A stretch of 64,000 bases of DNA from an uncultured Rickettsiales bacterium (GTDB taxonomy: Bacteria > Pseudomonadota > Alphaproteobacteria > Rs-D84). Positions 2,548 through 59,847 of this stretch are shown one piece after another. The translations under genes and the position numbers were made by a program. The notes beneath the pieces are model-generated. The model was given only the letters and a program-made list of their open reading frames with translations. It made no database searches and was not told the DNA's origin. Within the stretch, counting starts at the first letter, position 1, and every line of letters begins with the position of its first letter. The stretch is taken from the NCBI GenBank assembly GCA_947176385.1, contig CAMWQN010000002.1:8245-72244 (forward strand), written 5' to 3'.

Positions 2548-2577
2548 GTATAAAAACTGAGAGAGAGGAAACACACA

Positions 2578-4707: not shown

Positions 4708-4829
4708 GTATTTTCCCCTTGGTTATCTTGTCTTTATCCGTGCAGAAATATTATAGCACAGGTCAAATTCAAAAGACCTAGGAATGAAATTTTCATAAAA
4801 AAAAATCCCCGGACGCACCGGGGAAATAT

Positions 4830-5678
4830 TTATTTGATAACATGAACATCCATTTGCGGGAATGGGAAATTCAACTTCTTCTTTGGCAGTGTTGCATAAA
4901 TCTGTTCACGAACCGATGCCGCTGTTGAATACATATCAGCATACGACGTCCAGAAACGTACCGTCAAAACAACCGCACTGTCTGCCAAATCAGACACAAA
5001 TATTGATGGCGCCGCTGGCTTGTCCAACACGCGCGGGTCTGCCGATAATATATCCATAATAATGCTACGAGCCCGGTCAACATTATCACCATATGAAATG
5101 CCAATTGTTAAATCTGTACGACGATTGCCACCACGTGACATATTTACAATCACACCACCCGACAATGTCGCATTCGGAACAATCACAACCTGATTATCAA
5201 ATGTCTGGATTTCTGTTGTGAAAATCAGAATTTTTTTGACCACACCAGTCTGTCCACCCGGGGCAATAATTGTATCGCCAACCTTGAACGGTTTAAAGAA
5301 CAGTATTACCAATCCCCCAGCAACATTTTGCATTGTGCCCGACAATGCCATACCAATTGCCAATGCACCAGCGCCCAACGCTGCCGTAATCGCGGTCATT
5401 TGAACACCGACAGTCGTCAGAACAACAACGAATACAAATATCTTGGATATTATGCTGACAAATGACGACAGGAACGATTGTAATGATGGTTCCAATTTCC
5501 GACGTTCCATGCCATTTTTTACAACCTTGGTCAATCGTGCTGACAGCCACAATCCAACCGACAAAATCAGTAACGCCAATGCGATTTTAAAACTGAACCG
5601 CAATGCGCCTTCTATCATCTGGTGCATCAAGTCATGAAAGTTTAATGAAACCAATGGTGATGATGTATCTGGTGTCAT
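4830..5678 (-). CDS. mscS: Small-conductance mechanosensitive channel (MscS family)
   Basis: TM helices are followed by the MscS beta-domain motif FKPFKVGDTI..GVVKKI.IFTTEIQTFDNQVVIVPN. Confidence 0.8.
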   Translation of the reverse strand: MTPDTSSPLVSLNFHDLMHQMIEGALRFSFKIALALLILSVGLWLSARLTKVVKNGMERRKLEPSLQSFLSSFVSIISKIFVFVVVLTTVGVQMTAITAALGAGALAIGMALSGTMQNVAGGLVILFFKPFKVGDTIIAPGGQTGVVKKILIFTTEIQTFDNQVVIVPNATLSGGVIVNMSRGGNRRTDLTIGISYGDNVDRARSIIMDILSADPRVLDKPAAPSIFVSDLADSAVVLTVRFWTSYADMYSTAASVREQIYATLPKKKLNFPFPQMDVHVIK

Positions 5679-5745
5679 AATTTATACCTTTTTTTGTTTT
5701 ACATTACTTGCCCGGCATTTCGCCGGGCTATTTATTATTTCAGGA

Positions 5746-21884: not shown

Positions 21885-22580
21885 TTATTCATAATAGCAA
21901 CGGCTGCCTGCCGGAACAATCTGATATACACCTGTAACATCATAACCTTGACTTTCGGTTAAATAGCAGCCTTGGATTGTTTCATTTGCCCCAGGGTCTG
22001 ATTCCCCTGCTTTTGTGGTGGCACTCATTGGACACTGCGTACATCCCGTCATTCCCATTGCACCAAAACCCTCAATATAATTTTCCTTAATCGCGGAACT
22101 GGAACCATAAAAACCTGCAGCGCAACGATGTTTTGAACGTTTTTCCCACGTACAGGTACTGGTATTACATTCGGTCCACGTATTTGTCTGATATCCATTC
22201 CAAGAATCTTTCCAGGCATCCTCGTCATACTCAATTTCTGAATTTGGGTCACATGTCTTTGCCACACTGCACGGTTGGCATACATATACACCACCATTTC
22301 TATTGCTGCACCCCATTGCCACAAAATCTGGGTCCAACGTCAGGATATAGCCATCTTCGCACATATGACATATCTGAAATTTTCCGGCTTTACCAGTTGA
22401 TTTATTTATATAGCACAACGAATACGGAAACATATACTGTTTACAATGTGCAATATTCTGTGCGGGTTCTGCAATTGATGCACACGTTTCGTTATCAGAT
22501 GGCGCCATTCCGCATTGTGCATATGCTAATTCGGTCGTTAAAAATGTTGACATTGTAACGATTAAGAGTTTTTTATTCAT
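21885..22580 (-). CDS. Small secreted cysteine-rich protein, paralogue of 1004-1699 and 40216-40890
   Basis: Signal peptide present. The shared C-terminal module is RCAAGFYG..GCTQCP..GCYL..D.TG.Y..C.YE. Confidence 0.8.
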   Translation of the reverse strand: MNKKLLIVTMSTFLTTELAYAQCGMAPSDNETCASIAEPAQNIAHCKQYMFPYSLCYINKSTGKAGKFQICHMCEDGYILTLDPDFVAMGCSNRNGGVYVCQPCSVAKTCDPNSEIEYDEDAWKDSWNGYQTNTWTECNTSTCTWEKRSKHRCAAGFYGSSSAIKENYIEGFGAMGMTGCTQCPMSATTKAGESDPGANETIQGCYLTESQGYDVTGVYQIVPAGSRCYYE

Positions 22581-30977: not shown

Positions 30978-31169
30978 CTCTTCTCCTTTCTTGGCAATAT
31001 CAGCGTATTTCAGTGCACCCACAAACACAATAAGAACCAAATACTAAAAAACGCCCCACCTGGGGCGTTTAAATTTTGGTTGCGCACGGCGTGCAAATTT
31101 CGAACTGATTTATTGGAAATAAGACAAAAGATTGATGTGTTAAAAAATCTGCCACTTGTTCAAGTGATT

Positions 31170-40215: not shown

Positions 40216-40890
40216 TTATGGTTTAATAGGTTCCAATTCAACAATTTCACCGCCGGTTAACCCATTGGAATATTCACAATTTTCTGTATATGTACCACTG
40301 CCAGTTGTATCTGAGAAAGATGTTCCTGCAGGCAAATAGCAACTTGTGACATATTTGCTGCCGGCTGCACTGGTACCGTATGTGCCACTGCCAGATTGTG
40401 GACATCTGGTACAACCTGATGTTCCATTGGTACTGGAACCATAATATCCTGCGGCGCAACGATATGTAGTTGATATTACAGCACAACCACCTGTACATGT
40501 GCATGAACGTCTTGCCTGTTGTTCGTATCCAGCGGTTCCAGTTGCAGTGAAACCGATATCACTGGCGCATGTACCGCATGATATGCAACATTGATACACC
40601 AGTTCATATGTAGTGTTACACGAATTGCTGAGTTCTGATATTGATACTTGTTTTCTTTCTGTGCCACTTGGGCATGATGTACAACTTTGAAAACGTATTA
40701 CATTTCCCGAACCACTTTTATAACATACATTTGTATGGTTGCCTTCCCGACATGTTGTTATTGCCTCCATTGGGGCAGCAGTACATGTTGTTGACGTACA
40801 CACGCCATTATCGAGTGAAAGTACAGCATTGGCTGGTTTTTCTATTGGCATGATTGTTATCATTGCCAATATAATTAGTTTATGTTTCAT
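40216..40890 (-). CDS. Small secreted cysteine-rich protein, paralogue of 1004-1699 and 21885-22580
   Basis: The shared C-terminal module is YRCAAGYYGSS..GCTRCP...SCYLPAGTSFSDTTGSGTYTENCEYS. Confidence 0.8.
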   Translation of the reverse strand: MKHKLIILAMITIMPIEKPANAVLSLDNGVCTSTTCTAAPMEAITTCREGNHTNVCYKSGSGNVIRFQSCTSCPSGTERKQVSISELSNSCNTTYELVYQCCISCGTCASDIGFTATGTAGYEQQARRSCTCTGGCAVISTTYRCAAGYYGSSTNGTSGCTRCPQSGSGTYGTSAAGSKYVTSCYLPAGTSFSDTTGSGTYTENCEYSNGLTGGEIVELEPIKP

Positions 40891-41207: not shown

Positions 41208-44200
41208 CTATATTCCCAAGCGATGTGTTAATTTCATCATGAATATAGATTCGTTTCCATAATCATCACAGTTGTTTGGATTTACACGATAAATAAATCC
41301 CAACGCCCCATCTGTAAACGCGCCAAAATTATGTCGGACGGACCCAGCAAAACGCAATTCGCGCACATCCGGACGCAGGTCAACATCTGCGACATGACTG
41401 TCACGGATAACCAGATCATAATTACCATCGTCACTGCCAACCACATCATACTGGGCAGATGCATATTTCATTGCGCCATGCGATACCGCCAATGGGCGCG
41501 CAACAGATAAACTGATATTTCCCCAATCCAGACCAATACCAAACGCATTTGAATCAACATCTGACATACCCAATATAAAGTCCCCACTTGCGTCCGCACG
41601 CGTTCTGGCAAATGTAGCGCGCGCCGTCAATGCGAATTTATCCCACGGTGCATAACGCATAACTGTATCAATATATGTTGTATCACCCCCGCCCAAATTC
41701 AGCAATCCGCCCGTCTGCGCCCCCAGAATTGTATTTGATTCTGTGGCATGACCAACAGCGGTTGTAAACCCAAACTTATCGCCATGCCACGCCAGGTGCG
41801 ATTGCCCGCCCTGGAACAATCCCAGACGTGCTGGATTAAATTGTGACGTTACGGTCGGGTCATTTTCCAATAAACCTTCGTCTGTTATTTCACCGGAAAA
41901 TACGCGTCCACCAAATGACCAGCGACCATGATTATATATCGCATCAGACACAATTGAATTTGACGCCATTGATAATATTGGATTCGCCATTCCATCAAAG
42001 CGTGACGCGCCATCTGTCAAATAATGCTGATATCCCGCATTCAAATTCCAATTACCACGTGAATAATCAAAACGCAATGCATCCAGTCCTGACAAATTGT
42101 CATTGTATGCACGCGGCGAACGCATCAATGAAAAACCAAAGTTTCCAATCTGAGCACGCTGAACATTATCGTCGCGTGTTTTCAATTCACCCAATACATC
42201 CCCCATATACAAAGCCCGACGTCCCGCGTCACCAGATACCGCAAATTCATTTTGCCACACACGTGGCATGCGCAAACTGCCATCCGAACTTTCCAACACA
42301 TCAAAGAATGGTGCACTGATTTTATCAACAGATGGTCTGAAGGCACTGGACCCGCGGAACATTGTATTTGATGCCGCGCGCCAATATGCATCGCCATTGC
42401 TGGACACAATATCCGTACCATTATAATAATAAACCTTGGTTCCAGGTTTGGTCGCGCGTTCCAAATTTATCAGACCATATCCAAAGACTTCTTTGAACAC
42501 ATCCAAATAATCTTCACCATCTTGCATCCAGCGCACATTATATTCATTTGGTAACACATACATTGATTGTAAATAACTGCGCAAAGAATCCTGGGTTGTA
42601 GCCACACCATTGGTAAATGTTCCCAAATATGGTCCATCCGCCGTCAATGCCAACAATGCAAATACTTGCTTGTTATCCAAATAATCAAATGCAGACTTTA
42701 CCACACCCGCAGCACCTGCGGCACTGGCGACCGCCATTTCTGCATTTACACCCGCTGATGCAAAACACCATGGGTCGATACTGCTGCTGCCACGACCGGC
42801 TGCGCCACAAACGCGTGCGCGATAATATGTATCATCTTCTGTCGTAGTGGTTCCATTGGTATCCGACCACTGTGATAATGCATATTTACCAGATGGTGAA
42901 AATCCAGCAATTGAATCTGTCCCGGATGTACCAGCTGTACCGGTTATACCAACAGCAACCACTGACATAAACAAATGTTCCAAATTCTTAAAAACTAATG
43001 GTGCTGCGTTTTCAAATGTTGCCTCTCTTGTTCTGCCGGTAAAATTACTGTCTGTTTCATATCCACCTGTTGAAAATACCAACAATGGTGTCGTACTGTT
43101 TCCGACCGCAGTAAACAACGTCGCCGCATATGCACTGGGCAAATCATTTGAACCACTGATACCATCACCCTTATCGCGGTCATAATATAAATCAACAAAT
43201 TTTGCAAATTCAGTACGGTAATCACTGGTTTCCGCAGCCAATATATCATCAATTACTTTTGTATCAATTGAATACAACGGCGCAATAACAGATGCATTTG
43301 CCAACACATCCGCTCTGGATCGCCCATTACCGTCTTTATTTAAAGTGGCAGCCAGTGATAAAGCCTGATAGTTATGATAATCAACATTCCCCAATTCGCG
43401 ATTTAATACCAACTGTTTGGTGTCACCAGCAACAACCTGCAAATATGCCACATCCACGGCACCATCTGCATTACTGTCAAAATACAGAAAATTATTTTTT
43501 ATACCGATATATCCAGTATATGTCGGACTGTTGTCACCAGCAGCCTTGGCAGTAAACTTATTACCATCCATTGTCAACGTTAATGTTCCCAGTCCCGGCA
43601 ATGTTATCGTATCACCGGTGGCAAAAGTGTCACTTGCCCTTTCAAATGTACCATTGCGCGCATCATCTGATACTTCTTTGAAGCCCCGTCCACCACCGGT
43701 GCGGAAAATAGTCATTTGACCATTTGGCATAAACCCAACATAGTCAGCATTTGGATATCCCGAAAGACTGCCCCCCAGAACCTTGGCCAGGCGATTATCA
43801 TCATTGCTGGCACTGGCATTTTGAACTGCGGTATTTGATCCGGATAAATCGAACAAATCCACCATATTTGGATCTTCGTACGTTGAATCATCCAACAATG
43901 AATTATTATCCGTACCACGTTTAATCAAATTATTGTAATACTTGCTGGACAGCAGATCATTACTGGCACCATTCAGACTGGTTGAATCATTTAATGTCGT
44001 CCAAACCAACAAAACATCATCCAATGAATCTTTCCCAGCAGAATAATCCCCAGCAGGCTTCATCGCAGCATTTACACCGTTTGCAGTAACCAACGCAACA
44101 TTTGTTGGACGTCCGCCCTGAATATCATATTCGCCCAATGCGCCACTTAATGGAATCGGCGCATTTGAAAATTGATTACGCAATGTACGCATCCCCAGAT

Positions 44201-44906
44201 ACCCACGTGCAAATGGCGAATACCCATGCATCATCAACAGATAGTTTTGTTTGAATGCATTCGACATAAGTTCAAAATTCTGTTTGTAAATCGCTGTAGA
44301 ACTGCTGGGACCATATACTTCCAAGTTTGCAGAATACGATTGCGCTTCGTCTGCCGCGGTTGGCAATGCCGGTCCATAATTCAATGCAAACGCTTCTTTG
44401 CCAAGACCACTTTCACCACCACCGGAATTATCACCACCGATTGGGCGATTTCCTGCCGTCCCGGAATTATCGTTTCCATTGCCAGGGTCAAATACATCCG
44501 TTAATAAAAACAGTCCACCTATAACAACGGCGGCACCCGCCGCCGCCAATGTCAAACTCTGGGCGGATGATAGCCCACCAAACAAACCACCGCTGCCCTT
44601 GGGCTTATTACGACTGTTATAATTCTTTATTTGTCGGTCACAACGCGATGCATCTGCGCCATACATCTGTAAAATCTGGGCAGCACGCATATCATTATTC
44701 ATCAGTGCAGTACAAACCAGTGACAATCCTGTTGAATCGGTATAGTTAACATCTGCCCCGCTGTTTATCAGAATCTGAACCTGTTGAATATCAGCATTTT
44801 TTGCCGCAGACAACAATTGTGCTGCCACCATAAAATCATTAGATGCCGCATGCACCGACAGTGGCGCAAAAAATATCATAAACAACAATAATCTGATGTA
44901 TTTCAT
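41208..44906 (-). CDS. Large envelope protein: signal peptide, ankyrin repeat, glycine-zipper segment, large passenger-like region, C-terminal beta-rich domain
   Basis: The ANK-like segment is NADIQQVQILINSGADVNYTDSTGLSLVCTALMNNDMRAAQILQMYGAD. The glycine-zipper is GGLFGGLSSAQSLTLAAAGAAVVIGGLF. The last ~300 aa show an alternating beta-strand pattern. Confidence 0.7.
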   Translation of the reverse strand: MKYIRLLLFMIFFAPLSVHAASNDFMVAAQLLSAAKNADIQQVQILINSGADVNYTDSTGLSLVCTALMNNDMRAAQILQMYGADASRCDRQIKNYNSRNKPKGSGGLFGGLSSAQSLTLAAAGAAVVIGGLFLLTDVFDPGNGNDNSGTAGNRPIGGDNSGGGESGLGKEAFALNYGPALPTAADEAQSYSANLEVYGPSSSTAIYKQNFELMSNAFKQNYLLMMHGYSPFARGYLGMRTLRNQFSNAPIPLSGALGEYDIQGGRPTNVALVTANGVNAAMKPAGDYSAGKDSLDDVLLVWTTLNDSTSLNGASNDLLSSKYYNNLIKRGTDNNSLLDDSTYEDPNMVDLFDLSGSNTAVQNASASNDDNRLAKVLGGSLSGYPNADYVGFMPNGQMTIFRTGGGRGFKEVSDDARNGTFERASDTFATGDTITLPGLGTLTLTMDGNKFTAKAAGDNSPTYTGYIGIKNNFLYFDSNADGAVDVAYLQVVAGDTKQLVLNRELGNVDYHNYQALSLAATLNKDGNGRSRADVLANASVIAPLYSIDTKVIDDILAAETSDYRTEFAKFVDLYYDRDKGDGISGSNDLPSAYAATLFTAVGNSTTPLLVFSTGGYETDSNFTGRTREATFENAAPLVFKNLEHLFMSVVAVGITGTAGTSGTDSIAGFSPSGKYALSQWSDTNGTTTTEDDTYYRARVCGAAGRGSSSIDPWCFASAGVNAEMAVASAAGAAGVVKSAFDYLDNKQVFALLALTADGPYLGTFTNGVATTQDSLRSYLQSMYVLPNEYNVRWMQDGEDYLDVFKEVFGYGLINLERATKPGTKVYYYNGTDIVSSNGDAYWRAASNTMFRGSSAFRPSVDKISAPFFDVLESSDGSLRMPRVWQNEFAVSGDAGRRALYMGDVLGELKTRDDNVQRAQIGNFGFSLMRSPRAYNDNLSGLDALRFDYSRGNWNLNAGYQHYLTDGASRFDGMANPILSMASNSIVSDAIYNHGRWSFGGRVFSGEITDEGLLENDPTVTSQFNPARLGLFQGGQSHLAWHGDKFGFTTAVGHATESNTILGAQTGGLLNLGGGDTTYIDTVMRYAPWDKFALTARATFARTRADASGDFILGMSDVDSNAFGIGLDWGNISLSVARPLAVSHGAMKYASAQYDVVGSDDGNYDLVIRDSHVADVDLRPDVRELRFAGSVRHNFGAFTDGALGFIYRVNPNNCDDYGNESIFMMKLTHRLGI

Positions 44907-45033: not shown

Positions 45034-45738
45034 TTATTTACAATAACTTTGACGTGTAACGTATGTATTTACAGTCAATTTTGTTTCCGCTGTTGCGACA
45101 ACGCGACGTGTAACAGTCTTGGTTGTATCAGCAGAGTTTGCATTACCATTGTTGCTGATGGTAACTGTGTTATTATTACCATTGATAACAACATTTGCAT
45201 TCTGATCATCACCACAACCGTTTGCGTTTTGTACCGCTGGTGCAACTACTGGTACTTCTTTAACAACAATAACTGTATCAGGTTTTACCGGCGCCGGTAC
45301 ATTATTTGGACGTGTTGGACGTTGTGCAGGCTTTTTTGCTGGCTTTGGGTTAATGCATGGGCATTTTTCCTGACGTTGTGCGATTGTATCAACACGAGCA
45401 GTCAAACTGTCTGTACGCATTTCAACTGTATCAACACGCAATTTCAGACTGTCAATATCTGCACGATGTGCTTCAATGCTGTCCTCTGCCGCACTCATAC
45501 GAGTTTTCAAGTTGTTGATTTCACGCAAATTGCTTGAGATTCTACTTTCATGATTCTCAATCGATTCAATAATTTGATGTTGAACCATACCTAATGTATC
45601 AACTGTTGCTTCGACGCCGTCAACGCGTGCGCTAACCGCTTCGTTACCATTGCAACTTTTGACACTGGCAGCCAACGCAACAACTGCGATAACACCAGCT
45701 GTCAAACCAACATAATGTTTCTTTAACCAATCTTTCAT
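45034..45738 (-). CDS. Membrane-anchored coiled-coil protein with a Pro/Lys-rich linker
   Basis: Start placed at MKDWLKK with AAGGAA RBS; the ORF track begins at 45768. An N-terminal TM segment is followed by heptad-like repeats (RVDTVEMRTDSLTARVDTI). Confidence 0.65.
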   Translation of the reverse strand: MKDWLKKHYVGLTAGVIAVVALAASVKSCNGNEAVSARVDGVEATVDTLGMVQHQIIESIENHESRISSNLREINNLKTRMSAAEDSIEAHRADIDSLKLRVDTVEMRTDSLTARVDTIAQRQEKCPCINPKPAKKPAQRPTRPNNVPAPVKPDTVIVVKEVPVVAPAVQNANGCGDDQNANVVINGNNNTVTISNNGNANSADTTKTVTRRVVATAETKLTVNTYVTRQSYCK

Positions 45739-45892
45739 CTTTATTCCTTTTGTTTGATGACAAGACAAATATAGACAAACAAATGTGTTTTGTCAAGATA
45801 CAAATAATAAAAAATCTAATTTTTTGCCCCGCCCCCTTTTTTTCACTTTTCACGCCATGCGTTTTTTGATATAGTTCTTAGCAAGAGAGAAC

Positions 45893-46759
45893 ATGAAAAA
45901 ACATAACATACTTTTTATAGTCTGCAGTTTCTTGGCAATGTCAACCGCACATGGTGCCCAATCATGCTCGCGTGCGAACCTGACACGATGCCTGGATTCT
46001 GCCTGTGCAATTAACGTCAGTTCAAATCCTGCAGCACGTTGTCAGTATTGTGGTACGGACTCTGCCGGCACACCACCCACCAGTGGGATGCGTAATGTAT
46101 CTGCGGGCGCGTCTGCGAAATACAACCTGACGGACAAGGAATTAAAGAACGCGCCATCTGACCCCGGCAGTCGTTATGCTTGGGCAACTGCGCAATGTAT
46201 TAACAAGGTCACAGGCTGTACCACAGATGATGTATCTGAAGCATACGATTCATTGATTGAACAATCCTGCAAGGCAGCCGGCATCAGTGCACAAATGGCA
46301 ATATTACAAGCCGAAGCACGTAAAAAACCAACTAAAACAGCATGTACGACCAGCATCCGTTCATGCATTGTTGATGCAAAACGCTGTGGCGCAGATTGGC
46401 GCGCATGCCAGACAGATGCAGATTTTGATAAATTCTTTTCCACATGCGGTGTCGAAGCCACTGGTTGCGACACATATATGTCTGCGATACGTACAGAATT
46501 GTCTGGCGCACGTAACAGCGCAATCGCCAGTGCCGCAGCAGCCGTCCAAGGTATCGTAAAGAGTTATCAAAACGCACGTGAAACAAAATTGACCGCGGCA
46601 CGCACATCATGCCACGACAACGCCAGTCGCGATACATGTATTGAAAGTGTATGCGCCAATAATATGCGCAACAATTGCAGCCCAGATTTTCCGGGCGAAC
46701 GCGTAATGGCAACACAATTGTGCAAGTTCTATGAACTGGCATGCAACGTATTAAAATAG
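45893..46759 (+). CDS. Secreted cysteine-rich protein, small divergent member of the large Cys-rich family
   Basis: Signal peptide present. Cys-pair pattern is CSRANLTRCLDSAC.., SIRSCIVDAKRCGADWRAC and DTCIESVC. Confidence 0.75.
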   Translation: MKKHNILFIVCSFLAMSTAHGAQSCSRANLTRCLDSACAINVSSNPAARCQYCGTDSAGTPPTSGMRNVSAGASAKYNLTDKELKNAPSDPGSRYAWATAQCINKVTGCTTDDVSEAYDSLIEQSCKAAGISAQMAILQAEARKKPTKTACTTSIRSCIVDAKRCGADWRACQTDADFDKFFSTCGVEATGCDTYMSAIRTELSGARNSAIASAAAAVQGIVKSYQNARETKLTAARTSCHDNASRDTCIESVCANNMRNNCSPDFPGERVMATQLCKFYELACNVLK

Positions 46760-46785
46760 TACAACCGATAAAAAGCATACTTACA

Positions 46786-48255
46786 ATGACAAACAAAACA
46801 CATTTTAATTTTTACAACAAAATTGCCCATACAGCATTATGTGGCACAATGTTTGTTTTCATTGCATACGGCATTATGCCAGCATCGGCCGCGATTATTG
46901 ACCGAACAACACCTGCAGCGACAACCGCAACAACACCACGCCCGGCATCACAACGCATGCCGACAATGAGTGCAAAATTACCAACGGTCAGCCAGTCCAA
47001 CACCAGCACAAGCAACACAAATACCCAGACCAATAATAATACAAATAACGGAACAAACAATAATACCAGCAATAACAGCACCAATAATTCCGCTGCCACG
47101 ACGAACACAAATGATGCAGCAAACACAATTGCCAACGAAATAATAGAAGACAAAACATCCCAGTTTGATGCGATACTGGAATCGGCAACCACAGGCAGTA
47201 TCGACGCATCGACACAAAGTCTGGCAGATTTAATCCGTGCACAACGTGCGGCACTGGATGCGGCAGCTGCCGAAGAATTCTCTTCTAAAAACACAAAATC
47301 CGCAACCGCAGGACTCAGCACATGCGACAGCGGTCTGCGTGCATGCATGCAGGAAAAATGCGGTCCTAATTTTACGAAATGCAGCGGTGATGGCGACACG
47401 ATTTGGGGTGACAAAATGGACGCATGCCGTCGCGGTGTAACGTGCAGCGGTGAAGAATACAAATTATTTTCTATCGAAATCAAGGCTGACCGTGATCTGA
47501 ATGCTAAATTGGATTCATATCAGAAGATATTAGACTGCGGTAATTCATATAATTCATGTATTGAACAACAATGCGGCGCAACATTTAACAAATGCTTGGG
47601 CAAATCAGCGGGGGACGCCGCAATTGCAAAATGCGCATCAATTGCACGCGATTGCACACAGCAAGACAGTGGTTTAGCCGCCCGCGCAATGGAGGTTTTT
47701 GCGACCCTGCGCCAAGACGCAGAAAAACAAATCAAGAAAGACGAAGCACGCCTGTATGAACTGCGTGATACAATGCGTAGCCGCTGCCAATCATTGGGCG
47801 CATTATTTGACGAACGCAGCCTGGATTGCGTATTTACTGTTGAATTCTGGGCGGGTCAGCCAACAACATCGCTGTATGCATCTAAAAAAGCATACGCTGG
47901 TTCAACATTTGATTGCACGCAAACCTGGTTCGGTGTCGACATAACCACATTCAAAGAAAACGCATATCGTCTGACACGCGAACAAACATCTGCAACATCT
48001 GCATTATTGGGTTCTGGTGTCGGTATGGCGGTTGGCTCAATTACATCTGGCGCAATTGATCGCGCAATCGACAGACACAAGGCTGAACAAGCGGTCAAGA
48101 AAGCAGAAAAAGAAGACAAAGAAGCAGCCAAGGCACGCCAGGCTTCGAATTCAGCTGATAGCGACACATCCAGCCAACAGGAATGCACCACCGACAGTGA
48201 TTGTGGCGATGGCGAAACATGCAACAATCGCGTGTGTAAAAAAAAAATTAACTGA
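46786..48255 (+). CDS. Secreted cysteine-rich protein with Asn/Thr-rich linker and glycine-zipper; ends in an A10 tract
   Basis: Alternative start at 46741. Motifs are CDSGLRACMQEKCGPNFTKC, a glycine-zipper GSGVGMAVGSITSGA, and a C-terminal knot-like ECTTDSDCGDGETCNNRVCKKK. Confidence 0.75.
   Translation: MTNKTHFNFYNKIAHTALCGTMFVFIAYGIMPASAAIIDRTTPAATTATTPRPASQRMPTMSAKLPTVSQSNTSTSNTNTQTNNNTNNGTNNNTSNNSTNNSAATTNTNDAANTIANEIIEDKTSQFDAILESATTGSIDASTQSLADLIRAQRAALDAAAAEEFSSKNTKSATAGLSTCDSGLRACMQEKCGPNFTKCSGDGDTIWGDKMDACRRGVTCSGEEYKLFSIEIKADRDLNAKLDSYQKILDCGNSYNSCIEQQCGATFNKCLGKSAGDAAIAKCASIARDCTQQDSGLAARAMEVFATLRQDAEKQIKKDEARLYELRDTMRSRCQSLGALFDERSLDCVFTVEFWAGQPTTSLYASKKAYAGSTFDCTQTWFGVDITTFKENAYRLTREQTSATSALLGSGVGMAVGSITSGAIDRAIDRHKAEQAVKKAEKEDKEAAKARQASNSADSDTSSQQECTTDSDCGDGETCNNRVCKKKIN
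48238..48247 (+). repeat. Homopolymeric A10 tract at the junction of two ORFs
   Basis: Ten consecutive A residues. Loss of 1 A (or gain of 2) fuses ORF 46786-48255 to the frame of 48239-49045. Confidence 0.95.
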
Positions 48256-49045
48256 CACACATGGCGACACTAATCCCGCAAATGATACCGCTGTAATTCC
48301 ATCATTTAATTCATCCACGCCACAGACGCCGCAATGTACAACAAATTCAGATTGTGGTTCAGAACAAATTTGTGACAATGGTGTATGTAAAAATAAACCT
48401 GCTACAAATCCGCCAGCAACACAAAATGCGGGCAACACATGTTTCACCAAAAACACATCTGGCGCCAAACGCTACATTCCACCCGTCAATACAACAGGAC
48501 GCCGATATTTCTGGATTGGCGACTCACGCATGCAGGGAATGGCCAGGGATGAAATCGTCGGCAACAAACCAAACGAAGGTGTAATTGCCCAAGGCAGCAT
48601 GGGACATTCCTGGTTTCAAGACACTGCAATACCAATGCTCAATAACTGCCTTCATGATGGTGACGTCGTTATTTTAGCAATGGGCGCAAATGATATCGGA
48701 TCTACAAATGAATCTGCCACACGTGGTGCAAATAATTATATCGCAACATATGGCGATTTAATACGGAATCACCCCAACATAACGTTCCGCATTTTATCTG
48801 TTAATCCAGTACAAGAGCAACTTGCTAAACAAAGTGGCTATAAATTAACTAATACACTAATAACAAAATTTAATAACACATTACAAAGTGCTTTAAATCA
48901 ATACTGGATTGACACATACACACCAACCCTGCCAATGATAACAGCATTGACAGCAGGCGACGGTTTGCATTATGCAGGTGGAAAAAAAAGCAATAAAATC
49001 GAAAACAAAATCTATGATACAGTTATGTCATCAATAGGTGGATAA
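48239..49045 (+). CDS. SGNH/GDSL-type hydrolase domain ORF with no start of its own; continuation of the upstream ORF in the +1 frame
   Basis: It repeats the knot motif QCTTNSDCGSEQICDNGVCKNK. It then carries GDS (FWIGDSRMQG), GANDIG and DGLHY (DxxH) blocks. There is no in-frame ATG before the GDS block downstream of the upstream stop. Confidence 0.6.
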   Translation, partial: KKKLTDTHGDTNPANDTAVIPSFNSSTPQTPQCTTNSDCGSEQICDNGVCKNKPATNPPATQNAGNTCFTKNTSGAKRYIPPVNTTGRRYFWIGDSRMQGMARDEIVGNKPNEGVIAQGSMGHSWFQDTAIPMLNNCLHDGDVVILAMGANDIGSTNESATRGANNYIATYGDLIRNHPNITFRILSVNPVQEQLAKQSGYKLTNTLITKFNNTLQSALNQYWIDTYTPTLPMITALTAGDGLHYAGGKKSNKIENKIYDTVMSSIGG

Positions 49046-49143
49046 AATTTATCAATTTTGGTAAACAATCACCCCATTTTACATTGCCACGCCATGGACT
49101 TTTATGATATACTGATACATACAAATAGAAGGGACATTTTCGT

Positions 49144-52100
49144 ATGAAAAAATTATTATCAGTACTATTCGCAATAATTATCACCCTGCCCGCGTTGGCA
49201 ATGGATGTCAGTATCACTATTATTGATGAAAACAATGAACCATTGATTGGTGCCTCTGTCATCGTGGCAAACACACAAAATGGTGTAGTCACCGATACAG
49301 CGGGTCACGCAACTTTACGAAATATCCCAGACGACTCATCTATACGTATCAGCTATGTTGGATACCAAGAACAAACATTGCCAGCACAATCAACAATGTC
49401 TGTCAAAATGGAACCAACCACTCTGAATTTAGAAAGTGTAGTAGTAGTCGCATGTTCCCGTGCCAACGGTATAAAAACAACTAAGTGCGAAAACTGTGCC
49501 GATCCTGACAAATGTACCATCGACAGCTGCTCGGGTACATGTGTTGTACAGGAATGCCATGAACCATGCTACAAGAAAAAAGGTAACAAATGCGAAATGC
49601 AAAGTGTTACTGGTGGTACATTTACATTCATAAACAATCAATGCGGATTAACCTGTTTATCAATTGCAGGTTATGCCCAAGATCCAAAGAATCAATGGAA
49701 ATGTACACAAGATTGCACATCATCCATTACCGACCCAAATGTAAAGAAGGCACAATACAAAGGAAGCATAACACCAAACAACCTAAAATGCGAAATTATT
49801 GATTGCAAGGGTAAATATCATCCATCTGATGACAAACAAAGTTGCATCCCAGACCAAGGCGATTGCACCCCTGAACAATTGCAAGCCGTGCATGCCACCA
49901 CCGGATATTTAATCACCAGGACCAATAAATGTGTTCCAAAGGAATGTATCCAACCACAATACAGACCAGATGGCAAAGGCGATGACCGCGTATGCGTTGA
50001 CATGGTTGGCACAGCATGCAATGTAAAAAATGCGACCAGTGCAAAATTCGCAGTCCGTGATAATAAATTGATATGTGTTGTTGATACATGCGACACTGCC
50101 AATGGTTATGTAAAATCTGCTGATAGCTTATCATGCATCAAAGACTGCCTGAGTACTATCAAGGAAAAAGTTCCACTGGCAAGCGCTGCCGAATACGACA
50201 GCACTGGTAAGTGTGTAATTAAAAAATGCGATAAAAAGAATGGTAAAAAATACATCCCCAGTGATGATGGTCAAGATTGTGAAGAAACCGAACGTGATTG
50301 CAATAAACAAACCGACAGCCAAATCTGGCCGGAACATGCAACCGCCGCATTATACAAGAAATCAAAAACAGGTGGCACTGCAAAATGCGTTGCAACAGAT
50401 TGTGAACCAGGATACAAACCAGTCAAAGGACAATGTGTCAATCAGGTCGGACAACCATGTAAAGTATCACATGCCAAAGAAGCCAAATTTGAACTGCGTG
50501 ACAATAAATTGGTATGCGTAGTCGTATCATGCGACACCGCCAAGGGTTACACAAAAACCGCGGACGGTTTGGAATGTATCAAAGACTGTCTGTCAACAGC
50601 GAAAAACAAAGAACCCCTGGCAACCAAGGCTGAGTTCGACAGCAACGGTAAATGCATAATCAAAAAGTGTGATAAAAAGGATGGTAAAAAATACATCCCC
50701 AGTGATGACGGTCAAAAATGTGAAGAAACCGAACGTGACTGCAATAAACAAACCGACAGCAACATATGGCCGGAACACGCAACCGCCGCAGCATACAAAA
50801 AATCAAAAACGGGTGGTGCTGCAAAATGTGTCGCAACAGAATGTGAAGACGGCTATGACGTTGAGGGTGGTAAATGCACATCTGTAAATGATTCAGACTG
50901 TGATAAAAAACCTGAAAATTCAAAAAAATCACATCGTTACTATGACGTCAGCCAGCAACAAACATTGTGCATCATCGACGAATGCAAGGATGGATATAAA
51001 ATCAGCAACGACATGCTGTCATGCATACTGGAATCTGCATTAAGCGAAGAAGATGCAAAAAAACGTATGGATGAATTAAAAGAAAACGCCCTGAAAATGA
51101 AAGAAAAAGAACAGTCTATTGAAAATAAACTGTTGGGCGCCGCTGGTATGGCAACGGTTGGTATTGGCGGAATGAATATCGCATCTGCCCTGTCTGAACA
51201 AAGCGCTGACCGCAAAGCAGAAGATGATATGAAAGCATATCTGGCAACATTCCGCTGTGACTATGGTCAGGGTCGCAATATCCTGGGTGGTGAAACAAAT
51301 ATTCAATTACCAGGTGCCAGCGAATTGATGCAATACACAACCGAATATAAACAATTGGCATTAAACCTGAAATCTGACAAAGCCGCATTGGGAATGATGC
51401 CGGGCATTGAATCAGAAACCGTATTTGATTCTGCAACAACTGGTCTTTATGATGATGTTGGTATCGGCACACAGAAAGGTGCATTTACATCATTGTCACG
51501 TGCCCTCTTGGATGAAAATGGCGCTGACGCCGCCGAATGGCAGGCAATGAAAGACGCCACCGCAAAAAAATTAAAGACCGGTGTAATTGTTGCTGGTGCG
51601 GGCGCATTGGGAACATTGGCGGGCAACCTGGCTATCAATCATGGCAATGGTGACCAATCCGCTAATATAATGAACCAATACGAAGGCTTACAGGAAGATA
51701 TTCCAGACATCACACTGCCACGCATACCATGTTCTAATTTCCCAGATACAACTGGTGTTGGTTATGTACCAAACTGTGAATGCAAAACCCCAAATTCATA
51801 CTTTGATGAACAGACTCGCAAATGTGAACAATGCGGTACAAATGAACACGTCGAAAACAAACAATGCGTATGCAACGACGGCTTCCACCGTGATGCAAAC
51901 AGTGGCAACTGCATTGCAAATCAACCGGAACAAACCTGTCAGAATTTGCCAGCCGGCAGTGGCGCAACAGGTTCAGGCAATTTCCCAAATTGTGATTGCA
52001 AAGATCAAAATGCAACATTTGATAAACAATCATTGAAATGCAAATGCAAGGACGGATTTTCAAATCCAAATGGGGGTCAATGCCTGCAAATATGCGCAGG

Positions 52101-52854
52101 GTTACCTGGGGTCGATAACAGTCGGGCATCCAATTATAACGTGCCGCAGTGCCCATGTGAATACGATGGCGCAAAATTTGACCCGTCACAAAAAGCCTGC
52201 CTTTGCCCACAAGGTCAAACACCAGCCATTGAAAACGGTCAGAAAAAATGTATCACACCGTTAACAGGTACACAATGTGATACAATCCCTGGTGCAACAG
52301 GCACAATTGTTCCGAACTGCACATGCACTGACCCCAACAAACAATTTATCAAGAAACAAGGAAAATATGGCTGTCACTGCAAATCTGGTATGCGTGAAGA
52401 TGAATCTGGCAACTGCGTCAGTGGCAGTGATCCTGTATTCTCAGGTAACTTTAGCGCGAATGAAACATTTGACCTAGGCAAATCCGAAATCAGTGACAAC
52501 AGATGCACACAAATCATAAATAAAATTAAGACAGATTCTAGATATGATGCAAACATATCTGGCACATTATGTATCAGTGCAATCGGTCATACTGACACAA
52601 AATACTTCAAAAACACCCCTAAAAAAGAAGCAATCAATAAACAAAAGAATCAAGAACTGTCAAAAGACCGCGCTCAGGCAATGCATGATTGCATCAACAG
52701 AAATATCCGCAGTTTGTTCCCAAGAGCGACAGTCACCAGTCCAAATGTCGTCGGCAAGGGTTGGCAAGAATGCGTGGTACAAGACTTAGATAAAGATACC
52801 CCATCATGTCGCAGGGTAGAAGTAAAAATCCAACTGAACAGTTGCCATAACTAA
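49144..52854 (+). CDS. 1236-aa mosaic envelope protein: CarboxypepD_reg-like N-domain, Cys-rich repeats, coiled coil, glycine zippers, EGF/furin-like repeats, OmpA-like C-domain
   Basis: The N-terminal region is IIDENNEPLIGASVIVANTQNGVVTDTAGHATLRNIP..IRISYVGYQEQTL. The C-terminal region is AIGHTD..N.ELSKDRAQAM...CRRVEVKI. Confidence 0.8.
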   Translation: MKKLLSVLFAIIITLPALAMDVSITIIDENNEPLIGASVIVANTQNGVVTDTAGHATLRNIPDDSSIRISYVGYQEQTLPAQSTMSVKMEPTTLNLESVVVVACSRANGIKTTKCENCADPDKCTIDSCSGTCVVQECHEPCYKKKGNKCEMQSVTGGTFTFINNQCGLTCLSIAGYAQDPKNQWKCTQDCTSSITDPNVKKAQYKGSITPNNLKCEIIDCKGKYHPSDDKQSCIPDQGDCTPEQLQAVHATTGYLITRTNKCVPKECIQPQYRPDGKGDDRVCVDMVGTACNVKNATSAKFAVRDNKLICVVDTCDTANGYVKSADSLSCIKDCLSTIKEKVPLASAAEYDSTGKCVIKKCDKKNGKKYIPSDDGQDCEETERDCNKQTDSQIWPEHATAALYKKSKTGGTAKCVATDCEPGYKPVKGQCVNQVGQPCKVSHAKEAKFELRDNKLVCVVVSCDTAKGYTKTADGLECIKDCLSTAKNKEPLATKAEFDSNGKCIIKKCDKKDGKKYIPSDDGQKCEETERDCNKQTDSNIWPEHATAAAYKKSKTGGAAKCVATECEDGYDVEGGKCTSVNDSDCDKKPENSKKSHRYYDVSQQQTLCIIDECKDGYKISNDMLSCILESALSEEDAKKRMDELKENALKMKEKEQSIENKLLGAAGMATVGIGGMNIASALSEQSADRKAEDDMKAYLATFRCDYGQGRNILGGETNIQLPGASELMQYTTEYKQLALNLKSDKAALGMMPGIESETVFDSATTGLYDDVGIGTQKGAFTSLSRALLDENGADAAEWQAMKDATAKKLKTGVIVAGAGALGTLAGNLAINHGNGDQSANIMNQYEGLQEDIPDITLPRIPCSNFPDTTGVGYVPNCECKTPNSYFDEQTRKCEQCGTNEHVENKQCVCNDGFHRDANSGNCIANQPEQTCQNLPAGSGATGSGNFPNCDCKDQNATFDKQSLKCKCKDGFSNPNGGQCLQICAGLPGVDNSRASNYNVPQCPCEYDGAKFDPSQKACLCPQGQTPAIENGQKKCITPLTGTQCDTIPGATGTIVPNCTCTDPNKQFIKKQGKYGCHCKSGMREDESGNCVSGSDPVFSGNFSANETFDLGKSEISDNRCTQIINKIKTDSRYDANISGTLCISAIGHTDTKYFKNTPKKEAINKQKNQELSKDRAQAMHDCINRNIRSLFPRATVTSPNVVGKGWQECVVQDLDKDTPSCRRVEVKIQLNSCHN
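49993..50874 (+). repeat. Two tandem 441-bp (147-aa) intragenic repeats
   Basis: Unit 1 starts at CVDMVGTACNV (49993) and unit 2 at CVNQVGQPCKV (50434). Long stretches are near-identical at DNA level, for example around KKYIPSDDGQ.CEETERDCNKQTDS. Confidence 0.9.
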
Positions 52855-52860
52855 AGTAAA

Positions 52861-52890
52861 AAACCAAACGCCCACATGGGCGTTTGGTTT
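52861..52890 (+). terminator. Intrinsic terminator
   Basis: AAACCAAACGCCCA-catg-GGGCGTTTGGTTTT. Confidence 0.7.
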
Positions 52891-52914
52891 TATCCCCCTG
52901 GTCCGCCCCCCTTT

Positions 52915-56859: not shown

Positions 56860-59847
56860 TTAGAACTGAGTATCCGAACATGTTTCCACAGGATCAGCCC
56901 ATGATTTGCAATACTTTTTACCAAACAAAGGATTTCCTTTCTTGGTGCATTGCTGGCTGCGAACACATTTATGACAATTCAATGTTTCCCATTCAAATGT
57001 CGATGTGATTACTTCCTTGTAATTCCATTGATTCAACTGTTTAGAACCAGTCAATTCACGCTGTTCAGATGCATCTGCACCATTTGATTTTCCATCTTTT
57101 GATGAACTGACCATACCGGCAATTCCTGCCCCAACCAAGGCCGCACCACCTGCTGTTAATCCCAAACTTAACCCACCGGTAAATGGAACAGCAACAACAC
57201 CAACAGCCGCAGCAACACCACCAACTACAGTCGAAAGAGCCCCACCGACTGCACCAAAGAACTGACTGCCGAATCCTTTTGGTGGGTTTGGTGACTTAGG
57301 CAAAGAAGATATTTCCGCGAAAGACACACATGCAACACGGGCAAATTCACGGCGTGCATCCATTGCGTTTTCACCCTGGATTTTTGCCATACGTTCACCC
57401 ATTGTGGCATAATCCTGTAACATCTTTTGATTCAATTCATCAAACTTCTTATAATAATTTTCCTTGGCAACCTTTAACGCCTGGGTTGCGATAAGCATAC
57501 GCATCTGTTTGGTCAGCCCCGGGAATCGTGCCGCATCCGCAGATTTTTCGCCAATTCTGCTGCGGGTGTCATTACCACTGCGTTTCATACCCTGAACTTC
57601 GCGTCCTGTCATACAGAATTGAACCGTTGTATCTGATTCTATAATATTGATAGCGGTATCAATATTTTTCTGTAACAAAGCCAGTTCCGCACGTACGCGT
57701 TCTTTTTGCGCATCGGTTGCATCCTTTTGATTTGCACGATCCAGATATTCATCAACAGAAACCAGACGACCGTCATCATCAAAGTCAACACTTTCCCAAT
57801 ATATTGTACCATCCAAGACCCCAGCAAATGGTGTAATTGGTCCCAATCCCGCCGATGTAGAACCTTCGACACGTCCTAATTCAGAATCTTGGATTTGTGC
57901 TATATCAGTACGGCAACCTGAATACGATATATCCATTGTATTATTATCTGACTTATATTCACAAATCTTATATTCCAGGGAACGTGCGCCAATATTTTCA
58001 TCAACGGCAAGCCCATTACAAGATTCAGTATCGCCACAAACTTTAATCATAGCCTCGTTTGCGGCATTTTGGCATTGAGTCAAGAAAGTATTATCGATAT
58101 TCAACATAATACCCTGAACCATATCAGCCAGTTTGTCATATACTTCATTACTTTTGACTTGTGTATTACCATACAGTTCGACACAGCCTGTTAACTTTTC
58201 ATATGGGCACATACGAATAATAGAGTCTGTATCCAAACCGACGCACTGCGAGAAGTCGGATCCGCATCGATCATCGGATGTCAAGCAAGCTTTAACTTCT
58301 TTGGTACAAGAATCGACACGCATAGAAGCAAGACGTGCGACAACAAACTGCCAGATTTGAGAACTTTCAGCATCTTTTTTAGAATTTGTGCTGATACCGC
58401 ATGCATTCAATGGAATCTTACAAACATTTAACATTGTCAACGGACGTGACAAGCACATGTCATAAGAACCATCTGGGTCATTTGGATCCATGGTATCTTT
58501 ACAAGCCTTTTGGAAGCAGGCAGAGATATTACCAACGCATTCTTGTCTTGCTTTGTCTTCTGCAATCAATTCAGCGGATTTAATTTGCGGTGCGATTTCT
58601 CTCAGGAAAGTATCCCAAACTTTATCTTTTACTGCAACACAGGATTCAGTAATACCCATACACAGTGGCTTTTTACCTTCCAATGTGTCATAAGTTGATG
58701 CAAAAATTTCTATCGTTGTAGCACTGCCCTTAATCGCATACATCTTTGTTGCGTTCTTGGTGCTTTTGGTTGTGTTTGTGCTATCCATTGCAGATACAGA
58801 TGCACAGTTTGAAAAATCTTCACCACAACCACCGGTAGTAATCATACATTTTTTAAATTCTGTTGTACACTGACCCAAGTCATACTTGTTTGCAATATGT
58901 AATTGTTCCAATGCAGCCTCTCTTAACGCCTGTTCTGCTGCATATAATTTTTGTGCACTGGCATTCTTTTGCTGTTTCAGACTGTTTTCATATGCCGTAC
59001 AATCTGAACGGATTTTTTGTGAATACATCATCTGCAACATTGACAGATCGCTGCCACATTCAGGCATTTGTTGTGTGCAAAGTTGTGCGGCTGCACGATG
59101 TAATGCATCACCTTCTTTGCCATCAACCATGCTTTGCATGCTGTTTGTTTCACCAAATATATCGTCTGTATCAAAATCAACCACAGTATTCCAGGCAGAC
59201 AAATCCAATGCTTTACGTGCACTTTTCTTCTTTACCTGTTCTTCTTTCTTTATTACAGACTGCGCGGCAGCATTTGCATTGGCAATTGCCTGGTCAGCAT
59301 CGCTGCCCATTTCAATTTTTTCAACCCCAAATGTTGCCATTTGATAACTTTGTTGATCCAATTTTTCAATTTCTGCCAATATATCGTCTAATTCTGCGCT
59401 TCTATCACTGCAAATACAGCGTCCACCACTTGTATTGTCCAGCATACAGAAAGAATCCATGCAACCTTCATATTTCTGGCGACACTCTTCGCTGACAACA
59501 GTATTTTGTGTTGCTGCTGCAACCTTGGTACCAGAATTAATAACCTTCTGAGTGGTTGCTGCACGTGCGCCAACTGCTGCCGGCTGTGCTGCTGGGGCTG
59601 CACCACGTGTTGCCACTGCGCGTCCTGTGGTCGCTGCCCGCGCTGCTGCCGCTGGTGCGGCTGCATTTGTTGCGGGGGCACTATTTCGTACTGCCGCACG
59701 GGCAGACGTTGCACTTCGTGCCGCTGATGTCCCAGCTGATGACGAGGCTGTCGTTGCCGTGCCACCGCGACGTTGTCCCGCCGTTGCAGCATTTGCGTTT
59801 GTACCCAAAGCCGCTAAAACCATAATAAAAAAGGCAAATAATCTCAT
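56860..59847 (-). CDS. Large secreted cysteine-rich coiled-coil protein, core family member (995 aa)
   Basis: Signal peptide and an Ala/Arg/Thr-rich linker. Motifs are CRQKYEGCMDSFC, conserved Cys pairs collinear with 5746-8208, a long glycine zipper, and a C-terminal NCHKC..C..C tail. Confidence 0.85.
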   Translation of the reverse strand: MRLFAFFIMVLAALGTNANAATAGQRRGGTATTASSSAGTSAARSATSARAAVRNSAPATNAAAPAAAARAATTGRAVATRGAAPAAQPAAVGARAATTQKVINSGTKVAAATQNTVVSEECRQKYEGCMDSFCMLDNTSGGRCICSDRSAELDDILAEIEKLDQQSYQMATFGVEKIEMGSDADQAIANANAAAQSVIKKEEQVKKKSARKALDLSAWNTVVDFDTDDIFGETNSMQSMVDGKEGDALHRAAAQLCTQQMPECGSDLSMLQMMYSQKIRSDCTAYENSLKQQKNASAQKLYAAEQALREAALEQLHIANKYDLGQCTTEFKKCMITTGGCGEDFSNCASVSAMDSTNTTKSTKNATKMYAIKGSATTIEIFASTYDTLEGKKPLCMGITESCVAVKDKVWDTFLREIAPQIKSAELIAEDKARQECVGNISACFQKACKDTMDPNDPDGSYDMCLSRPLTMLNVCKIPLNACGISTNSKKDAESSQIWQFVVARLASMRVDSCTKEVKACLTSDDRCGSDFSQCVGLDTDSIIRMCPYEKLTGCVELYGNTQVKSNEVYDKLADMVQGIMLNIDNTFLTQCQNAANEAMIKVCGDTESCNGLAVDENIGARSLEYKICEYKSDNNTMDISYSGCRTDIAQIQDSELGRVEGSTSAGLGPITPFAGVLDGTIYWESVDFDDDGRLVSVDEYLDRANQKDATDAQKERVRAELALLQKNIDTAINIIESDTTVQFCMTGREVQGMKRSGNDTRSRIGEKSADAARFPGLTKQMRMLIATQALKVAKENYYKKFDELNQKMLQDYATMGERMAKIQGENAMDARREFARVACVSFAEISSLPKSPNPPKGFGSQFFGAVGGALSTVVGGVAAAVGVVAVPFTGGLSLGLTAGGAALVGAGIAGMVSSSKDGKSNGADASEQRELTGSKQLNQWNYKEVITSTFEWETLNCHKCVRSQQCTKKGNPLFGKKYCKSWADPVETCSDTQF

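Follow-up and report, generated by a model that had tools for sequence, protein, structure and literature searches.

OmpA-like domains, which bind peptidoglycan, and the N-terminal NTE domains of SusC-type TonB-dependent receptors belong to well-described classes of envelope proteins. In SusC the NTE and the Ton box that follows it are located on the periplasmic face (PMC7782687; bioRxiv 10.64898/2026.09.16.752182). For BT1763 the experimentally tested Ton box is 81-VDEVVV-86 (or 82-DEVVVTG-88), which is flexible in the isolated NTE; deletion of the SusC NTE abolishes growth, but its partner, and with it the function of the NTE in Bacteroides glycan uptake, is still an open question (PMC7782687). 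Studying 64,000 nucleotides of contig CAMWQN010000002.1 (assembly GCA_947176385.1) of an uncultured Rickettsiales bacterium from the Rs-D84 lineage, hereafter the window, we found both kinds of domain at the two ends of one protein. It is encoded at 49144-52854 on the plus strand and carries the working name P0001. While the ends of P0001 are of known kinds, new are a core domain of 210 residues, covered by no characterised protein, Pfam family or solved structure, and a previously unreported context for the SusC-type NTE and Ton box.

The open reading frame (ORF) is single and uninterrupted, and its translation from ATG to stop gives the 1236 amino acids that had been proposed. Behind the signal peptide, residues 25-101 match PF13715 (CarbopepD_reg_2; E 5.1e-14, 52.5 bits at a cut-off of 32.2), and the same domain matches PF13620 (E 1.1e-8). 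The NCBIfam model for SusC/RagA, TIGR04056, is matched at its positions 4-89 out of 981 (74.9 bits, cut-off 368). In the AlphaFold2 model of residues 1-640 (47-row alignment, mean pLDDT 85) the NTE reaches pLDDT values of 92-97. The best PDB match by Foldseek is 9hfj, in which the NTE of BT3090, a SusC for dextran, was solved by crystallography (TM score 0.87, root-mean-square deviation 1.1 Å, 33% identity); 6ytc, the NTE of BT1763, is matched as well (TM score 0.69). The predicted fold, Ig-like with seven strands, agrees with these solved structures.

Directly after the NTE the strand 96-LESVVVVA-103 aligns with the L-D/E-E-V-V-V-x-G-Y-G region of the Bacteroidota receptors. Residues 97-105 are the sole stretch of the residues 1-640 model with a pLDDT below 50. 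The 98 family members carrying an NTE have the consensus L-D/E-E-V-V-V-T-A-C at this place; the Ton-box-like motif is therefore not the relic of one protein. P0001 was rejected as a TonB-dependent transporter, because it has neither plug nor barrel and the TIGR04056 match ends at position 89 of 981. All named matches to the N-domain outside the family are Bacteroidota TonB-dependent receptors. Because of this, and because the collinearity extends from the signal peptide to the Ton box, lateral acquisition of the domain from Bacteroidota is plausible; any such transfer would go back to the origin of the family and would not be a recent event. In a tree of the N-domain, built on 87 columns from 92 sequences of the family and 28 of Bacteroidota, the labels cluster, and the tree supports neither a single origin nor a direction of transfer.

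At the C-terminus PF00691 (OmpA) scores 12.6 bits with the whole protein and 17.7 bits with the isolated fragment, below the cut-off of 27.2. Despite these values the assignment as OmpA-like holds, because homologues aligned at this position clear the cut-off (P0013 with 42.5 bits, P0018 with 32.6 bits), Foldseek returns the peptidoglycan-binding domains of OprF, OmpA, TagL, MotB, Pal and YfiB with probability 1.00 and TM scores of 0.5-0.65, the domain is modelled with a pLDDT of 89-98, and the motifs GHTD(1151) and N1169..L1172S..R1176A are kept. The columns of D1151, N1169, L1172 and R1176 are at least 90% conserved in an alignment of 86 sequences. In addition, phmmer aligns the domain to the periplasmic domain of TssL (6aeo). 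Among the Foldseek matches listed for the model of the C-terminal half are 3td4 and 3td5 of Acinetobacter baumannii OmpA, complexes in which the T-D aspartate and the R-A arginine bind the diaminopimelate carboxylate. Homology predicts that the domain of P0001 contacts the stem peptide of peptidoglycan in the periplasm. That the organism has an outer membrane and peptidoglycan follows from other genes of the window, which encode autotransporter beta-domains, a SurA-like chaperone, an SLT transglycosylase and a MotB-like OmpA protein. The preliminary description had read a CarboxypepD_reg-like domain of SusC type at the N-terminus and an OmpA-like domain at the C-terminus, and had named domain searches as the means by which both could fall; these searches support the two assignments.

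Judged by sequence comparison, the core is the best-conserved and the only truly new element of P0001. It consists of a charged helix, a first Gly-rich segment, about 125 conserved residues with motifs such as AYLATFRCDYG, PGIESE and TGLYDDV, and a second Gly-rich segment. Its identity to distant homologues is 47-59%, that of every other part of the protein 20-40%. In an alignment of 19 full-length homologues the core has 49 invariant columns, and nearly all columns that are invariant in the alignment lie in residues 656-832. AlphaFold2 places a long helix at residues 635-657, ahead of the first segment. Neither Pfam, searched up to E 5, nor NCBIfam matches the core, and its profile retrieves only low-complexity noise, such as the hydrophobic tract of prion, from the PDB sequences. 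None of the 50 Foldseek matches listed for the C-terminal half covers the core; they concern the OmpA-like and EGF-like parts only. Glycine-zipper models of Pfam and NCBIfam do not match the Gly-rich segments, and the YiaD model NF053611 matches by its OmpA part alone (10 bits).

A single cysteine, Cys705, is found in the core, and of 136 members 133 likewise have exactly one there. In 107 of the 136 each of the two flanking parts contains an even number of cysteines. Because of the single residue in the core and the even counts in both flanks, Cys705 is read as unpaired within the chain; the simplest reading of the sequences would be a free thiol or an intermolecular disulfide, linking either a homo-oligomer or P0001 and a partner.

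The core profile (A2, 210 positions) was searched against 1.84 billion representative proteins, with clusters at 50% identity. In total 857 clusters were found, 703 of them at E <1e-30, and the proteins range from 265 to 1865 aa with the core in variable position. P0001, which is among the building sequences of the profile, scores 356 bits over positions 1-210, and independent family members score 284-361 bits. In a set of 166 members, 140 start with a signal-peptide-like N-terminus; the median length is 386 aa before the core (ranging from about 30 to 1090 aa among members) and 269 aa after it, with about 5.7% cysteine in both parts. A Pfam scan of 60 sampled members identified PF13715 in 39 and OmpA (E <=0.001) in 38. 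Minimal members comprise a signal peptide and the core, with or without an OmpA domain. According to these sequence data, an NTE, Cys-rich modules, the core, CxC repeats and an OmpA-like domain are the usual layout of a large, hitherto undescribed, lineage-restricted family. In public annotations the relatives are called 'carboxypeptidase-like regulatory domain-containing protein'.

For a survey of the loci one genome per prokaryote species was used, which gave 163 stretches confirmed by tblastn; 80 of these, from 67 assemblies, were kept. With the exception of two contigs, they belong to Candidatus Enterousia (order Rs-D84) or to metagenome-assembled genomes (MAGs) labelled gut Alphaproteobacteria, Proteobacteria or 'Rickettsiales' (Rs-D84-type), and they include KS320-82, one Enterousia MAG of the mSphere study. 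The two exceptions (L002 and L003; CAZJGX010000079.1 and CAZJGX010000091.1) are contigs of 3.7 and 2.9 kb in a MAG labelled Muribaculaceae. They encode Enterousia-type core-family proteins at 66-79% identity, and most likely the contigs are mis-binned. Two core-family copies occur in 13 of the 67 assemblies; the window has only one (BLASTP among its 42 ORFs and a six-frame search with a hidden Markov model).

One could suspect that P0001 is a chance mosaic or an assembly artefact, a chimera without coherent function, as the genome is of metagenome type and an internal tandem repeat of 441 bp could confuse assemblers. This is effectively refuted by full-length collinear homologues with 56-65% identity on independent contigs from several sources, by the same architecture in most sampled members, and by synteny in 49 of the 80 kept loci from 67 assemblies, with the same gene also on a 721-kb contig of a relative. 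Furthermore, the repeat copies share 74% of their nucleotides and hence do not represent assembly stutter. The 857 clusters and the Pfam scan speak against P0001 as a one-off mosaic. The preliminary description was right that the domain order is not known from any characterised protein. The N-domain is indeed of the SusC type of Bacteroidota, and the organism is indeed an alphaproteobacterium of the gut (Candidatus Enterousia / Rs-D84, according to the labels of the homologues). The segment read as a coiled coil with two glycine zippers (residues 636-845) is instead one conserved core of 210 aa; both Gly-rich segments exist, not as separate linkers but as parts of this best-conserved module.

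The remainder of P0001 is made up of cysteine-rich arms. Its 81 cysteines (6.6%) are divided among the N-terminal rod (48, residues 104-627), the core (one), the stalk behind it (26, residues 863-1091) and the last domain (six). The N-terminal rod comprises about eleven beta-hairpin modules of approximately 45 aa and four cysteines each, spaced as C, 17-29 residues, C, 4 residues, C, 10-16 residues, C, and is modelled as all-beta with a pLDDT of 80-95. The CPL1-like family PF21671 matches it weakly (16 bits, cut-off 27.4), while the relative P0016 passes with 38.2 bits. By Foldseek the rod resembles repeat arrays of EGF and beta-hairpin type only loosely. Within the rod a unit of three modules is duplicated in tandem, with 74% nucleotide identity over 300 nt and 108 of 147 amino acids identical (73%). 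Among 18 aligned homologues the extra copy is covered only by the distant pair P0016/P0017, at 37% identity. Behind the core follows a stalk of CxC repeats (pLDDT mostly 80-96, around 90), for which Foldseek lists EGF1-6 of NELL2 and Pfs25/Pvs25 at E values of about 4e-4 to 1e-3 and TM scores <=0.22; the cEGF model (PF12662) matches P0001 at E 0.09. The number of units differs among homologues (16-38 Cys). The Cys-rich modules and CxC repeats named in the preliminary description are thus confirmed by cysteine spacing, repeat pattern and AlphaFold2 models, the likeness to EGF arrays being loose.

The domain identities, the family and its restriction to one lineage, the synteny and the conservation of the motifs are shown by these data; what is said beyond this of P0001, which comes from an uncultured organism, we infer, and this includes its periplasmic location, its oligomerisation, the role of Cys705 and its partner. 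The reading that we favour, at about an even chance, is that P0001 is a periplasmic, disulfide-stabilised scaffold or tether anchored to peptidoglycan. The signal peptide would be cleaved and the whole mature chain would lie outside the cytoplasm, most likely in the periplasm. There the OmpA-like domain would hold peptidoglycan non-covalently, and the CxC/EGF-like repeats would act as a rigid spacer. The core, with its two Gly-rich amphiphilic segments and its odd cysteine, would self-associate or sit in a membrane leaflet, and may be locked via an intermolecular disulfide. The N-terminal rod would be tipped by the SusC-type NTE and the Ton-box-like strand. This tip probably docks a periplasmic partner by beta-strand pairing, because the same unit meets TonB in SusC transporters. 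The periplasmic topology is suggested by the fact that both ends of the protein are periplasmic in characterised contexts.

The signal peptide is the most hydrophobic segment of P0001, and besides it only residues 663-683 and 810-833 are weakly hydrophobic. If these two Gly-rich segments were transmembrane helices of an inner-membrane hairpin, residues 684-809 would be cytoplasmic and both Cys-rich arms periplasmic. A cleaved signal peptide followed by two further hydrophobic segments is consistent with this arrangement, as are the Lys-rich residues ahead of segment 2. On the Kyte-Doolittle scale the segments reach 1.3-1.66, at the border of what membrane helices show, and the region between them is the best conserved, which would suit a domain that has a fixed partner. 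Crude Hessa-type sums, calculated on a simplified, position-independent scale, are however +4.7 and +3.35 kcal/mol for segments 1 and 2 (family means +5.3 and +3.9), far from the +0.3 to +0.9 kcal/mol of the control, the helices of an MscS-like protein in the window. The region between the segments carries a net charge of -7, with an acidic stretch directly behind segment 1, which contradicts the positive-inside rule, and AlphaFold2 does not give two clean helices of 20 residues. Because of the Hessa sums and the loop charge, the segments are poor candidates for stopping transfer at the inner membrane, and a hairpin with a cytoplasmic loop is quite improbable.

A scaffold inside the periplasm has also to be weighed against a surface-displayed adhesin. 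Here the core would oligomerise into an alpha-helical anchor that sits in the outer membrane or spans it, tied to the peptidoglycan below by the OmpA-like domain, with the Cys-rich rod projecting outward and the NTE as a plain Ig-like end that binds a partner cell or the host surface. The N-terminal part is the most variable region, both in length before the core and in identity (20-40%, in comparison to 47-59% for the core), and carries the duplicated unit, whose extra copy has a counterpart in the distant pair P0016/P0017 alone; such a pattern is more typical of surface-exposed proteins. The C-terminal CxC part is also variable, so that variability alone does not mark the outside. A rod of about eleven modules plus NTE, if fully extended, would probably exceed the width of the periplasm, or at least be longer than the periplasm easily holds, according to our own geometric estimate. 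The family is multi-copy in reduced genomes, and display at the surface would suit the partner-dependent lifestyle proposed for Rs-D84 (PMC12306168). Even the low AlphaFold2 confidence in the highly conserved Gly segments fits a membrane or oligomer context. On the other hand, folded domains rich in disulfides are not known to cross the outer membrane unless a dedicated system carries them. Cys-rich folded modules are present on both sides of the core, and the true autotransporters of the window are almost free of cysteine (0.1-0.2%), which argues against passage through the outer membrane. Moreover, NTE and Ton box are periplasmic wherever they have been studied, and at a distal surface tip the conservation of the motif would be unexplained. 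We consider surface display doubtful, with a share of probability that should not be neglected: variable N-part, extra tandem copy and rod length keep it alive.

Against the periplasmic scaffold speak, besides the variability and length of the N-terminal part, the simplified scale of the hydrophobicity sums and the core model itself, which is poor, being helical at low confidence (pLDDT 33-86, AlphaFold2). Likewise, the gene is present in three gut-metagenome DNA runs and in none of the RNA runs. Other identities of P0001 were rejected. It is no lipoprotein, as a lipobox is missing and a lipobox-like N-terminus occurs in just 5 of the 166 proteins of the family set, and no autotransporter, as Pfam finds no C-terminal beta-domain (PF03797).

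Table. Positions in the window of the features of P0001, of its putative expression signals and of linked genes
Feature	Position	Strand	Residues	Basis and remarks
Promoter-like site, TTGCCA + 18-nt spacer + TG-TATACT	49084..49113	+		Consensus scan, 10/12 matches with TG extension; pattern match only
Shine-Dalgarno-like AGAAGGGA	49127-49134	+		9 nt 5' of ATG
Signal peptide (predicted), MKKLLSVLFAIIITLPALA	49144..49200	+	1-19	Type I cleavage motif ALA, then M at predicted site
SusC-type NTE domain (CarboxypepD_reg-like Ig fold)	49204..49428	+	~21-95	PF13715, AlphaFold2, Foldseek
Ton-box-like strand	49429..49452	+	96-103	Alignment with Bacteroidota SusC-like receptors
N-terminal cysteine-rich rod, 48 Cys	49453..51024	+	104-627	Cys spacing; AlphaFold2
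Tandem duplication, 147-aa three-module unit	49996..50877	+	285-431 and 432-578	Start-to-start 441 nt
Family-defining core	51049..51678	+	636-845	Conservation, profile search
Gly-rich segment 1, LLGAAGMATVGIGGMNIASAL	51130..51192	+	663-683	Kyte-Doolittle 1.3; G665, G673, G675, G676 invariant
Cys705, sole core cysteine	51256..51258	+	705	Invariant in 19-, 86- and 116-sequence alignments
Gly-rich segment 2, LKTGVIVAGAGALGTLAGNLAINH	51571..51642	+	810-833	Kyte-Doolittle up to 1.66; G813, A817, G818, G820, N832 invariant
C-terminal CxC repeat stalk, 26 Cys, four or five EGF-like units	51730..52416	+	863-1091	Pattern P.C.C...C.C...C
OmpA-like peptidoglycan-binding domain (predicted)	52417..52851	+	1092-1236	Fold, motif, homologues
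GC-rich palindromic hairpin, 14-bp	52860..52891	none		Directly 3' of stop; terminator scan, pattern match only
288-aa Cys-rich secreted protein	45893-46759	+		Syntenic with core-family gene
504-aa protein	46741-48255	+		Syntenic with core-family gene
MotA/ExbB-like gene (PF01618, 20.7 bits), then MotB-like gene	1816-3690	+		Pfam

The hairpin behind the stop codon looks like a two-way terminator. With regard to gene order, 49 of the 80 loci have homologues of the 288-aa and 504-aa genes of the window in front of the core-family gene and on the same strand. In the window an SGNH/GDSL esterase frame (PF13472, E 7e-6) follows the 504-aa gene within 45893-49045 (+). Judging from this order, the 288-aa, the 504-aa (with the SGNH frame) and the core-family genes probably form one functional unit. 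At about 25 loci the core-family gene is followed by homologues of a convergent 741-aa gene and of a 358-aa membrane protein, and the conserved order is also found on the 721-kb contig mentioned above. This identifies P0001 as the orthologous-locus member of the family.

A second type of paralogue, for example the 915-aa protein at 4540-7287 of locus L012, combines NTE, Cys modules and core with a tail that is not OmpA-like. At seven loci such a paralogue lies directly upstream of homologues of the MotA/ExbB-like and MotB-like pair of the window, whose MotB-like protein (2578-3690, 370 aa) combines a clear OmpA domain (54.9 bits) with a long coiled coil. One may speculate that the family represents a new energised or partner-coupled envelope device. 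The core would then be a previously unrecognised alpha-helical module for membrane association and oligomerisation, and a TonB-like or Mot/Exb-type motor would take hold of this scaffold, which is no transporter, by an NTE and Ton box acquired from Bacteroidota. We regard this as rather improbable. If it were true, then, with the gene pair next to the paralogue in seven related genomes, the proton-motive force could reach a peptidoglycan-anchored, disulfide-linked protein lattice instead of the plug of a beta-barrel. The lineage is reported to lack flagella.

Close to the conserved cluster and divergent from it, 45034-45768 (-) encodes a protein of about 234-244 aa. It has a membrane anchor at its N-terminus and a coiled coil, a spacer rich in Pro and Lys (PKPAKKPAQRPTRPNNVPAPVKP), and many Asn residues in its C-terminal part. 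This layout is TonB- or TolA-like, and the protein is weakly conserved in four related loci. It has no TonB_C match and no Pfam match at all, and as a TonB it is a lead only. The gene at 41208-44906 (-) encodes a secreted protein of 1232 aa with 0.4% cysteine and one weak ankyrin match. Its synteny with the cluster extends to many relatives, where it lies upstream on the opposite strand or, at three loci, downstream on the same strand.

The window harbours further secreted proteins. Two autotransporters (23096-25858 (-) and 28386-31040 (-); PF03797 E 2e-18 and 2e-29) contain 0.1-0.2% cysteine, in contrast to many other secreted proteins of the window with 4-9%. Four paralogous secreted proteins of 720-995 aa with 4-5% cysteine and no Pfam match are encoded at 5746-8208, 8243-10411, 10854-13328 and 56860-59847 (BLASTP among them down to E 1e-119). 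Small secreted proteins of 224-231 aa with 7-8.5% cysteine, encoded at 1004-1699, 21885-22580 and 40216-40890, are weakly related to each other (BLASTP E 2e-7 to 4e-9). A 79-nt tRNA-Ser with the unusual anticodon ACT, predicted by ARAGORN at 14617-14695 (-) within or overlapping ORF 14149-14814, is possibly a false positive.

A natural family in which the NTE and a conserved Ton-box-like strand persist while plug and barrel are lost offers an independent handle on what the NTE binds. The core, an unannotated domain with 857 sequence clusters, deserves a family model of its own. Genomes of the Rs-D84/Enterousia group are smaller than about 1 Mb, fermentative and lack many biosynthetic pathways; they have been proposed to depend on other cells and to encode many hypothetical membrane proteins for cell interactions (PMC12306168). 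In a genome of less than 1 Mb a multi-copy, rapidly varying envelope family takes a visible share, which makes it a prime candidate for a role in envelope integrity or partner contact.

Comparison with known systems shows four partial likenesses. In Chlamydia, likewise an organism with a reduced genome, the abundant exported cysteine-rich proteins OmcA and OmcB form a disulfide-cross-linked outer-membrane complex. The likeness is a functional analogy only and concerns disulfides that might stiffen the envelope; no relationship of sequence or fold to P0001 was found, and Enterousia retains genes for peptidoglycan-related functions. The glycine-zipper outer-membrane lipoproteins of the SlyB/Pcp and Rickettsia 17-kDa antigen type are exported proteins with short Gly-rich, weakly hydrophobic helices; they are secreted through the Sec translocon before they associate with the outer membrane and oligomerise. 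P0001 also has short Gly-rich, weakly hydrophobic segments, a comparison that serves as a lead only. However, it lacks a profile match as well as a lipobox, and its segments stand 125 residues apart, on either side of a conserved domain, instead of forming a tight hairpin.

With the SusC/RagA transporters of Bacteroidota (BT1763, BT3090) P0001 shares, in collinear order, the signal peptide, the seven-stranded Ig-like NTE and the D/E-x-V-V-V strand, and the identity of its N-terminus to Bacteroidota SusC-type N-termini is 33-51%. It differs from them by the absence of plug (PF07715) and 22-strand barrel (PF00593), neither of which has a Pfam match, by the cysteine-rich rod that follows the motif, and by its host, an alphaproteobacterium and not a member of the Bacteroidota. 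With the OmpA family (the C-terminal domains of OmpA and OprF, Pal, MotB, TagL/TssL, YiaD and YfiB) it shares the C-terminal beta-alpha-beta-alpha-beta-beta domain with the motifs G-x-T-D and N-x-x-L-S-x-x-R-A. In P0001, however, this domain carries six cysteines, and it is preceded not by a beta-barrel, a lipid anchor or a stator helix but by EGF-like repeats and the new core of 210 aa.

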